Assembly: GCA_045540015.1 (NCBI GenBank)
Contig: JAZQGP010000049.1
Coordinates: 21,901 to 85,900, forward strand
Source of the DNA: Eubacteriales bacterium
GTDB lineage: Bacteria > Bacillota > Clostridia > Oscillospirales > CAG-382
Direction of reading: 5' to 3'
Length of the DNA: 64,000 nt
Below, in pieces: positions 15,673 through 16,180 of the stretch; the first letter of the stretch is position 1; every line of letters starts with the position of its first letter. The notes under the pieces are model-generated. The model saw nothing but the letters and a program-made list of their open reading frames with translations. It made no database searches and was not told the DNA's origin. The position numbers were made by a program, and so were the translations under genes.

Positions 15673-16180
15673 CACGCTTCTTGAAAGAAGCTTAGCAAGA
15701 ACTTTTAAACCGCGCGGATACTTTGGCTTAACATTTACCACGCGACAAGCTCCATTTGTGCGCCATAAACGCAAGCGCACAAATTCAAACGGAAATTTTC
15801 TCTATAATAAAAAGTCAATGAGGGAAGTTAAGCCACCACGGCACGCTTTTTGAAAAAAGCTTAGCAAAAACTTTTAAACCGCGCGGATACTTTGGCTTAA
15901 CATTTACCACGCGACAAGCTCCATTTGTGCGCCATAAACGCAAGCGCACAAATTCAAACGGAAATTCCCTCTATAATAAAAAGTCAATGAGGGAATTTAA
16001 GCCGCCACGGCACGCTTTTTGAAAAAAGCTTAGCAAAAACTTTTAAACCGCGCGGATACTTTGGCGTAACATTTACCACGCGACAAGCTCCATTTGTGCG
16101 CCATAAACGCAAGCGCACAAATTCAAGCGGAAATTTCCTCTATAATAAAAAGCCAATGAGGGAAGATAAGCCACCACGGC
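15673..16180 (+). repeat. Tandem array of 3 x 169 bp, noncoding, hairpin-rich
   Basis: Unit starts are at 15673, 15842 and 16011 (CACGCTT...), and the units are near identical. Each unit has GCTTTTT-GA-AAAAAGC, TTGTGCGC-N11-GCGCACAA and AAATTCCCTC-N17-GAGGGAATTT stems. There are no unique spacers, and the unit length is not a multiple of 3. Confidence 0.9.

Follow-up and report, generated by a model that had tools for sequence, protein, structure and literature searches.

The 64,000-nucleotide window analysed here (contig JAZQGP010000049.1 of an Eubacteriales bacterium) carries a tandem array of three 169-bp units between mgsA (16548–16970) and hrcA (14484–15542). Both genes lie on the minus strand and were confirmed by Pfam; grpE, dnaK and dnaJ come after hrcA. 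An earlier note on this DNA, made from the letters alone, had described three near-identical head-to-tail units without unique spacers, set in a gene-free stretch beside the promoter of hrcA and its CIRCE operator (controlling inverted repeat of chaperone expression), and all of this held up. Tandem Repeats Finder reports the array at 15672–16180 with a period of 169, 3.0 copies, 95% matches, no indels and a score of 941, and a second repeat search of the window returned three copies spaced 169 bp apart with 95–96% identity. The gene-free spacer (15543–16547) measures 1005 bp and contains the following features:

15672–16180, minus strand: 3 × 169-bp tandem array, with a distal unit (16012–16180), a middle unit (15843–16011) and an hrcA-promoter-proximal unit (15674–15842)
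15572–15598, minus strand: CIRCE operator, TTAGCACTC-N9-GAGTGCTAA, before hrcA
16181–16496, minus strand: non-coding spacer of mosaic make-up, from the mgsA terminator to the array
16497–16524, minus strand: intrinsic-terminator-like hairpin (12 pairs plus a T run), directly past mgsA

A promoter-like site (TTAGCA-18-TAAAAT with an upstream TG) overlaps CIRCE, and the hairpin past mgsA should, by prediction, insulate the array against mgsA read-through. We looked for a target-site duplication at the array borders and saw none. The stretches between successive copies of the core motif of the unit (termed D below) are 95–96% identical from copy to copy, which rules out a CRISPR or any other repeat-spacer array.

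The unit is a mosaic of hairpin modules

On the hrcA-sense (minus) strand, each unit is composed of four modules in the order A, B, C, D, given here in minus-strand reading:

Module A: hairpin H3, AAATTCCCTC-N17-GAGGGAATTT
Module B: hairpin H2, TTTGTGCGC-N11-GCGCACAAA
Module C: hairpin CGCGTGG..CCGCGCG
Module D: core motif, AAAGTTTTTGC-TAA-GCTTTTT-TC-AAAAAGC

The three copies vary at 11 alignment columns, of which seven fall within the first 54 nt (module A); the loop of C accounts for one and the promoter-proximal D for the other three. Differences thus cluster in the 54 nt directly downstream of each D, for which local hypermutability, relaxed constraint or gene conversion could be the cause. 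The three stems per unit that had been described are all present in the consensus; the 10-bp stem of H3 (AAATTCCCTC/GAGGGAATTT), however, is perfect in copy 2 only. Copies 1 and 3 retain seven of its ten pairs, the unit of a related strain (L002, see below) is also down by three of ten, and nowhere are the changes in H3 compensatory. Copy 2 folds better than shuffled sequences on both strands (z = −2.9 and −3.2), as is to be expected of a unit built of palindromes.

D of copy 1, the promoter-proximal unit, behaves differently. The pairing-preserving double substitution reported for it (GCTTCTT/AAGAAGC) is real, and the flank carries a third coordinated change that the earlier note did not list: the flank reads TTCTT, the 5′ arm TTCTT and the 3′ arm AAGAA, with GCAAGAAC at the flank in place of the GCAAAAAC of the other copies. 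The 169-bp unit begins with CCGTGG... and ends with ...AAAAAGCGTG, which do not form inverted repeats. Nor is the unit a dispersed bipartite element with an insertion in its linker, as had been suggested, since the two have only a head of 30–38 nt in common, after which three different hairpin modules come.

The mgsA–hrcA spacer differs among related strains

An exact look-up of MgsA led to contigs of two NCBI metagenome-assembled genomes (MAGs) and several metagenomes with an identical protein; the same kind of look-up with HrcA, GrpE, a ParA-like protein and two further window proteins found no match on record. Among the strains with identical MgsA, the window included, the mgsA–hrcA spacer occurs as four alleles:

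Window: three 169-bp units, without the island genes described below
L002: a 172-aa gene, a 60-aa ribbon-helix-helix (RHH) gene, about 300 nt homologous to window 16181–16496, and one 169-bp unit
L001: the same two genes as in L002, and two tandem 232-bp units
L003: 316 bp with (GAGGAAT)5, one hairpin and, next to the hrcA promoter, a solo D

Copy number, whose check among strains had been proposed, therefore ranges from no unit through one 169-bp unit or two 232-bp units to three. Since the alleles differ, the array is not a conserved feature of the heat-shock locus. Its position beside the hrcA promoter, which had been thought possibly meaningful, is not conserved either: the unit of L002 (91% identical) is followed by a 27-nt restart of A, and the promoter there has no adjoining D. 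The mgsA–hrcA spacer is a hotspot of structural change.

The alleles also reveal how the units relate to one another. The 232-bp units of L001 match the 169-bp unit at both ends and differ in the middle, and about 105 nt (D, the end of C and the start of A) are common to both unit types. The triple-variant D (TTCTT) adjoins the hrcA promoter in the window and in L001, with canonical distal D copies in both, and the hairpins upstream of the same D differ between L003 and the window. Several short contigs of related strains end within units.

A second locus, the ypsA–murC spacer (window 22560–22640, compared with L001:330–420, L002 and L003:50–400), is likewise polymorphic at repeat modules. L001, L002 and L003 possess a full D and two hairpins here; in the window, a 70-nt deletion takes both hairpins and half of D. 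L003 carries some 180 nt of further hairpin modules. Both comparable D loci (2 of 2) thus vary at their repeat modules.

In L001 and L002, the two additional genes form an island (L001:6510–7354 and L002:6511–7355) between mgsA and the repeat units, which encodes a 172-aa predicted membrane protein without a Pfam match and, divergently, the 60-aa RHH (CopG-like) protein. Both genes are missing from the window, which retains just the non-coding tail of the island: 16181–16496 is homologous to the non-coding DNA past these genes in L001 and L002. In L003, the strain without an array, the (GAGGAAT)5 heptamer microsatellite (L003:6497–6535) lies directly upstream of a solo bipartite element.

D recurs throughout the window

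D is the sole part of the unit that matches outside the array locus in all sequence compared, and the 169-bp unit itself was found at no second locus there. A generic three-block search of the 64 kb gave 28 raw matches, with 0.37 raw matches expected; they amount to about 9–10 D-like loci or roughly one copy per 7 kb, whatever the function of the neighbouring genes. The copies within and outside the array include:

16014–16043, minus strand: D of the distal unit, canonical (AAAGTTTTTGC TAA GCTTTTT TC AAAAAGC)
15845–15874, minus strand: D of the middle unit, canonical
15676–15705, minus strand: D of the promoter-proximal unit, TTCTT/TTCTT/AAGAA variant
39066–39095, minus strand: solo D of the bipartite element (D plus CTTTTGAAC plus hairpin GTGAAATTGAAG..CTTCAATTTCAC)
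57061–57091, minus strand: solo D with a 3-nt loop, 14 nt past the stop of gene 57106–58683
22591–22608, minus strand: truncated D remnant in the ypsA–murC spacer
10735–10760, minus strand: variant D-like copy at the dnaJ 3′ end, in the orientation opposite to the array
44261–44286, sense strand of gene 44314–44823 and 28 nt downstream of it: D-like copy TTTTTT-AAC-AAAAAA-GCTC-AAAAAAA

Two or three GC-rich hairpins follow the D at 57061 (56985–57060), and the same modules are found in other Oscillospiraceae MAGs. On the minus strand, the dnaJ copy reads TTTCTT in the 5′ arm, AAGAAA in the 3′ arm and AAAGAA in the mirror run; behind it comes the bipartite hairpin (GTAAAATCGAGG..CCTCGATTTTAC), with three compensatory pair changes relative to the copy at 39100. 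The dnaJ frame (10735–10800, minus strand) enters this D-like element and stops at a TGA in the palindrome loop, so that the last DnaJ residues (KDLLS) are encoded by the repeat.

The window holds a second long tandem repeat, 130 bp × 1.9 with 90% identity, between convergent genes (8754–9001). Each of its units begins with a variant D-like motif and ends with a terminator-like hairpin (CCCGACTAC..CAGTCGGG) and a T run; both tandem repeats above 100 bp in the window (169 × 3 and 130 × 1.9) therefore hold D-like motifs. A shorter one, 50 bp × 2.1 with 83% identity (39111–39215), directly follows the bipartite element (39063–39110) upstream of a large gene ending near 38950. Further repetition occurs in two large, neighbouring minus-strand open reading frames (ORFs) of 1127 and 1208 aa (31944–39159), which share repeated segments spaced about 3.6 kb apart, and at 31063–31236, where a 96-bp-spaced repeat apparently encodes a dockerin-like DVNGDGxVN motif (our reading). 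Such features would fit a Ruminococcus-like organism of the rumen that possesses a cellulosome.

D is dispersed across phyla and viral contigs

We searched sequence collections with the exact D pattern, whose 25 specified bases give about 0.001 expected chance matches (our own arithmetic), and found it at 120 or more loci in MAGs. Among the matches listed, which are all from MAGs, possibly owing to the order of the scan, the phyla are Proteobacteria, Desulfobacterota, Omnitrophota, Aminicenantes, Bacteroidota and Firmicutes. The labels in that list comprise Acidocella, Rhodovastum and other Proteobacteria, Desulfatibacillaceae, Desulfolunaceae, Omnitrophota, Aminicenantes, Bacteroides, Alistipes, Tidjanibacter, Faecalibacterium and other Oscillospiraceae, and Lachnospiraceae, and many single genomes in it have several copies. 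The pattern AAAGTTTTTGC-NNN-GCTTTTT-N2-3-AAAAAGC is preserved with hardly a letter changed in MAGs of at least six phyla, as well as in 21 viral contigs and one giant-virus MAG.

D is mostly intergenic and depleted between divergent genes. Both orientations relative to the upstream gene occur, and several copies begin 0–30 nt past the stop of a co-oriented gene. The neighbourhood of D at about 120 loci, 8 kb each, contains no recurrent protein family, and no REP-associated tyrosine transposase (RAYT) was linked to D there, though a RAYT would be single-copy per genome. Nothing in a collection of 72,556 plasmids matched the array or the proteobacterial element described next, a metagenome scan for the lineage-specific C–D junction gave 0 matches, and a literature search with the motif strings and for repeats in these genera retrieved nothing relevant.

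The modules that accompany D depend on the lineage. In Acidocella-like MAGs (L023, L129, L115 and others), two inverted D copies flank a GC-rich hairpin (CTGGGCCGTG..CGGCCCAG) in a palindromic element of about 150 bp, which is bounded by AAGGAAG...CTTCCTT, has terminal inverted repeats of about 45 bp and occurs in several copies per 8 kb. In Firmicutes, two or three hairpins come after or before D, with lineage-specific sequence and pairing kept. Tandem D-bearing units with periods of 33–307 nt exist in at least eight other loci, which makes the 169-bp array a typical form of the D family.

Flank and hairpin arms of D covary as mirror images

On the hrcA-sense strand, D is made up of a T-run flank (F), the 5′ arm of a hairpin (X, a T run) and its 3′ arm (Y, an A run); on the plus strand, it reads GCTTTTT-GA-AAAAAGC-TTA-GCAAAAA, a layout of three blocks with short loops. 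In every variant class found, F is the mirror image of X, and hence parallel-complementary to the purine arm Y. As the TTCTT/TTCTT/AAGAA class is symmetric, we sought an asymmetric case and found one in L022, with the flank TCTTT and the arms TTTCT/AGAAA. A metagenome scan in which these arms were fixed and the flank was left free returned 124 matches, 112 of them with the flank TCTTT and none with TTTTT or TTTCT; the remainder were unrelated hairpins. The mirror rule is also obeyed by the class TTTTC/CTTTT/AAAAG of a viral contig (L255:2978–3007) and by three more classes in the window (10735–10760, 8736–8790 and 8878–8906). Copies with compensated arms and an unmatched flank were not found.

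The TCTTT/TTTCT/AGAAA class rules out Watson-Crick pairing of the flank with the 3′ arm, and no Watson-Crick pairing whatsoever produces mirror covariation of flank and arms. To our knowledge, neither a symmetric protein site nor a copying mechanism would yield such a pattern. The mirror rule corresponds to the sequence requirement of an intramolecular triplex, and we infer from it that D may fold into one. On the hrcA-sense strand, F, X and Y would be the Hoogsteen, pyrimidine and purine strands, respectively, with T.A-T and C+.G-C triads; on the other strand, the blocks would serve as pyrimidine, purine and reverse-Hoogsteen purine strands, with A.A-T and G.G-C triads.

A second type of covariation concerns the nucleotides around the hairpin. 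The triplets before the 5′ arm (NNN) and after the 3′ arm (N′N′N′) covary as Watson-Crick pairs, namely GCC/GGC (44), CCC/GGG (13), CCA/TGG (6), GGC/GCC (5) and many singletons; the common class GGA/GAC amounts to one G-C pair plus tandem G.A.

No support for RNA genes, coding sequence or promoters in the array

The earlier note had likened the array to multicopy small RNA (sRNA) genes such as Listeria LhrC. We obtained no support for this: Rfam 15 covariance models gave 0 matches at gathering score in the window, only chance-level matches at 15400–16700 with E <= 10, and none at D in 18 other D loci; promoter and terminator do not recur per unit, and H3 decays without compensation. Within 15672–16180, no terminator-like site was detected on either strand, and a consensus scan found a single promoter-like site in the array (TTAACT-16-TATTAT), in copy 1 only. 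Across the region, such sites were about as frequent as in shuffled sequence (3 vs 2.5 expected).

Contrary to the claim that no ORF is confined to the array, two ORFs of 44 aa lie wholly inside it (15815–15949 and 15984–16118, minus strand), each with a GTG start within a hairpin. They are not credible as genes: they have no ribosome-binding site, the hairpins upstream of them vary, and most differences from the L002 unit are, in our reading, non-synonymous. A conserved frame across D was rejected as coding on the same grounds.

Several signals for which D might be mistaken did not fit. As a sigma-70 promoter (TTGAAA-17-TTTnnn, plus strand, judged by eye), it would have a −10 position that varies among copies, and as a sigma-54 −24/−12 site (also by eye), its spacing is off by one. 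It is not a terminator, given that its T run lies 10–15 nt from the upstream hairpin and that the palindrome has no T-tail after it. A core site of a serine or tyrosine recombinase is unsupported because the outer arms of the palindrome covary instead of staying conserved. In all likelihood, the array neither comprises RNA genes nor plays a dedicated part in hrcA/dnaK control.

Comparison with known repeat systems

In kind, D resembles the BoxC/PIT/TM_ECO repeats of E. coli and other Proteobacteria, on which Hoyne et al. reportedly did earlier work in 2000. Like D, these consist of a pyrimidine block, a complementary purine block and, past a 3-nt loop, a mirror purine block; they too are multicopy and intergenic, occur as single or neighbouring repeats at strain-rearranged loci, and have no associated gene. 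In the scheme of Holder et al. (PMC4666352), D counts as a purine motif of class II when read on the plus strand and as a pyrimidine motif of class IV when read on the minus strand. Their published pattern, CCCTCNCCC-N3-6-GGGNGAGGG-N3-GGGNGAGGG (PMC4666352), shows no similarity to D, and D is therefore no TM_ECO member by sequence. TM_ECO is G/C-rich with 9-nt blocks, whereas D is A/T-rich with 5–7-nt blocks that would form T.A triads and an occasional C.G. Unlike TM_ECO, D is near-identical across phyla, is present in viral contigs, and comes with GC clamps, covarying outer pairs and hairpin modules. TM_ECO elements are intergenic, form a triplex in vitro and showed no promoter or terminator activity, and their E. 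coli loci show significantly more rearrangement between strains than do control sites (PMC4666352). The triplex of D, in contrast, is predicted from sequence. Taken together, D is of the same kind as BoxC/PIT/TM_ECO but belongs to another family.

Other repeats share part of these properties. Repetitive extragenic palindromes (REPs), bacterial interspersed mosaic elements (BIMEs) and REPINs (hairpin-forming REP doublets) are, like D, short extragenic palindromes with many copies and mosaic arrays that are depleted between divergent genes, and their inverted doublets form larger hairpins to which the proteobacterial form of D looks alike. REP sequences, however, are species-specific and have no mirror-repeat flank, whereas D is cross-phylum. 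Elements of the type of miniature inverted-repeat transposable elements (MITEs), such as Correia, RUP, BOX and ERIC, resemble D units in being small, non-coding, dispersed and hairpin-rich, sometimes co-transcribed with their neighbours and polymorphic in presence or absence between strains; the 169-bp unit differs from them in having no terminal inverted repeats, no target-site duplication, a single locus and no known parent insertion sequence.

Two RNA systems invite comparison as well. Listeria LhrC1-5, near-identical intergenic units arranged head to tail with hairpins in each, look like the array; every LhrC copy possesses a promoter and a Rho-independent terminator of its own and is conserved within the species, whereas neither signal recurs per unit here and the array is missing from close relatives. 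Triple helices of an element for nuclear expression (ENE) and an A-tract, as in PAN, MALAT1 and transposon RNAs, are eukaryotic or viral and have 9–10 triples at a defined 3′ end of the RNA. Read on the hrcA-sense strand, D has its blocks in what we take to be the PAN and MALAT1 order: Hoogsteen U-run, stem-loop, Watson-Crick U-run, A-run. D differs from these helices in its roughly five triples, its occurrence in both orientations relative to genes and its lack of a defined 3′ end.

Discussion

The reading that we favour, with moderate confidence, is that the array is a non-coding, strain-specific local tandem amplification of a mosaic unit, composed of the lineage-specific modules A, B and C and the widespread module D. 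It retains one option of the earlier interpretation, that of an amplified repeat element (with a dispersed head and variation between strains), and sets aside as unsupported another, that of sRNA genes. D and the unit ends common to all copies would serve as direct repeats. The hairpin or triplex potential of D may favour replication stalling and template switching, as proposed for TM_ECO, and misaligned homologous recombination or replication slippage would add, delete and swap units. Such gain, loss and exchange would leave the mgsA–hrcA spacer hypervariable, and the array itself may well be without function.

Several points weigh against this reading. Plain duplication leaves unexplained why the promoter-proximal D is the TTCTT variant and the distal D canonical; moreover, the same variant D adjoins different cargo in L001, and a variant resident D kept beside differing cargo suggests exchange at D or insertion next to D. 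Between copies, modules B, C and D are invariant while A varies (the columns in the C loop and in the proximal D aside), which could reflect functional selection rather than recency. That D is almost identical from phylum to phylum implies an active dispersal mechanism or a recognising factor. As for the triplex, five consecutive triads are few for a stable one, and the outer NNN/N′N′N′ pairing and the triplex fold probably cannot coexist, so that D possibly has two alternative conformations. In addition, the 112 matches that follow the mirror rule may descend from one ancestral variant, which reduces the independent support to about six variant classes rather than 112 events.

A bolder proposal, which we put forward as a tentative one, is that D may be a true triple-helix element, belonging to a new and widespread class that captures, exchanges and amplifies hairpin cassettes at intergenic sites, with the hrcA array as a cassette array at a resident D. 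If so, D would be a short A/T-rich hairpin with its flanking run docked in its own groove, kept almost letter-for-letter in at least six phyla and their phages. Cassettes would be captured through a factor or a replication-coupled mechanism, and the array beside hrcA would be no passive duplication.

A related alternative, in our view rather unlikely, treats D-bearing units either as non-autonomous mobile elements of the MITE, REPIN or REP-like type or as cassettes that a transposase or recombinase specific to the D hairpin moves in trans; that the array was built by repeated insertion beside a resident D we consider similarly doubtful. The dispersed, multicopy and cross-phylum occurrence of D, also in viral contigs, is what such elements would produce, and so are the roughly 150-bp palindromic elements of Acetobacteraceae-like MAGs, with their terminal inverted repeats of some 45 bp. 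The constancy of the variant D beside hrcA in the face of strain-dependent cargo and canonical distal copies, the different hairpins upstream of the same D in L003 and the window, and the frequent breaks of related-strain contigs inside units all point in the same direction. Yet neither a transposase nor any other family recurs near D in about 120 loci, the inverted D pair of L014 flanks an ordinary ORF (metallophosphoesterase-like, in our reading of the translation), and none of the 72,556 plasmids matches. The 169-bp unit, too, lacks terminal inverted repeats and a target-site duplication and sits at a single locus in the sequence compared. An explanation at the RNA level, in which the unit, or D with its hairpins, is a structured RNA (a tandem sRNA array, or a U.A-U triple helix in a 3′ untranslated region that protects RNA ends), seems improbable to us. 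It would account for the block order that D shares with the MALAT1 and PAN helices, for the D copies 0–30 nt past the stop of a co-oriented gene, for the compensatory changes between copies in D-attached hairpins and for a unit fold better than shuffles. Of the intrastrand triplexes, moreover, the pyrimidine type alone is possible in RNA (PMC4666352). However, D occurs in both orientations, and the dnaJ copy lies in one unable to form an RNA triplex. The array lies behind a strong terminator that parts it from mgsA and upstream of the hrcA promoter, without a promoter or terminator per unit; its H3 stem decays uncompensated, no Rfam family was detected here or at 18 other D loci, and a weak G-U strand-asymmetry test leans slightly towards the strand opposite to that of an RNA triplex.

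The location of the array could also suggest protein-binding, bent or UP-element-like DNA with a tuning or insulating effect on the hrcA-grpE-dnaK-dnaJ promoter. Downstream of the proximal D, a TTTACA hexamer follows after about 17 bp and CIRCE after about 75 bp (our reading); A and T tracts in phase, together with a near-perfect palindrome, make up D; and a D-like copy is found at the far end of the operon too, at the dnaJ stop. A regulatory role is nevertheless very unlikely, given that what lies beside the promoter changes from strain to strain: L002 has a promoter without an adjoining D, L003 one D and no array, and L001 another unit type. D occurs about once per 7 kb irrespective of gene function, and the E. 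coli PIT elements showed no promoter or terminator activity (PMC4666352). The protein-binding array that had been offered as a further option seems unlikely as well, as mirror covariation of arms and flank is not what a symmetric DNA-binding protein would impose. Finally, the copy number, or the array itself, might be an assembly artefact of a repeat-rich region, given that short contigs of related strains end inside units and that the source strain has no independent assembly on record. We regard this as hardly credible: the three copies differ at 11 positions, by which an assembler can tell them apart, and independent assemblies of related strains hold complete units and a two-unit array.

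With local amplification of a mosaic unit as the favoured reading, the array beside hrcA is variable repeat DNA of minor import, and annotation as sRNA genes or as part of the heat-shock regulon is not warranted without expression data. The array is real and ordinary in kind; the interest lies in the breadth of phyla in which D occurs and in its mirror covariation. A 30-nt motif common to gut and rumen Firmicutes, Bacteroidota, soil Proteobacteria, Desulfobacterota, candidate phyla and viral contigs calls for an explanation, and mirror-type three-way covariation is rare comparative evidence for a selected triplex geometry in bacteria. In practical terms, D marks strain-variable spacers that break short-read assemblies and is therefore a useful predictor of structural variation and of MAG contig ends. 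If D drives this instability, the observation made for BoxC/TM_ECO would extend from Enterobacteria to an A/T-rich, cross-phylum family.

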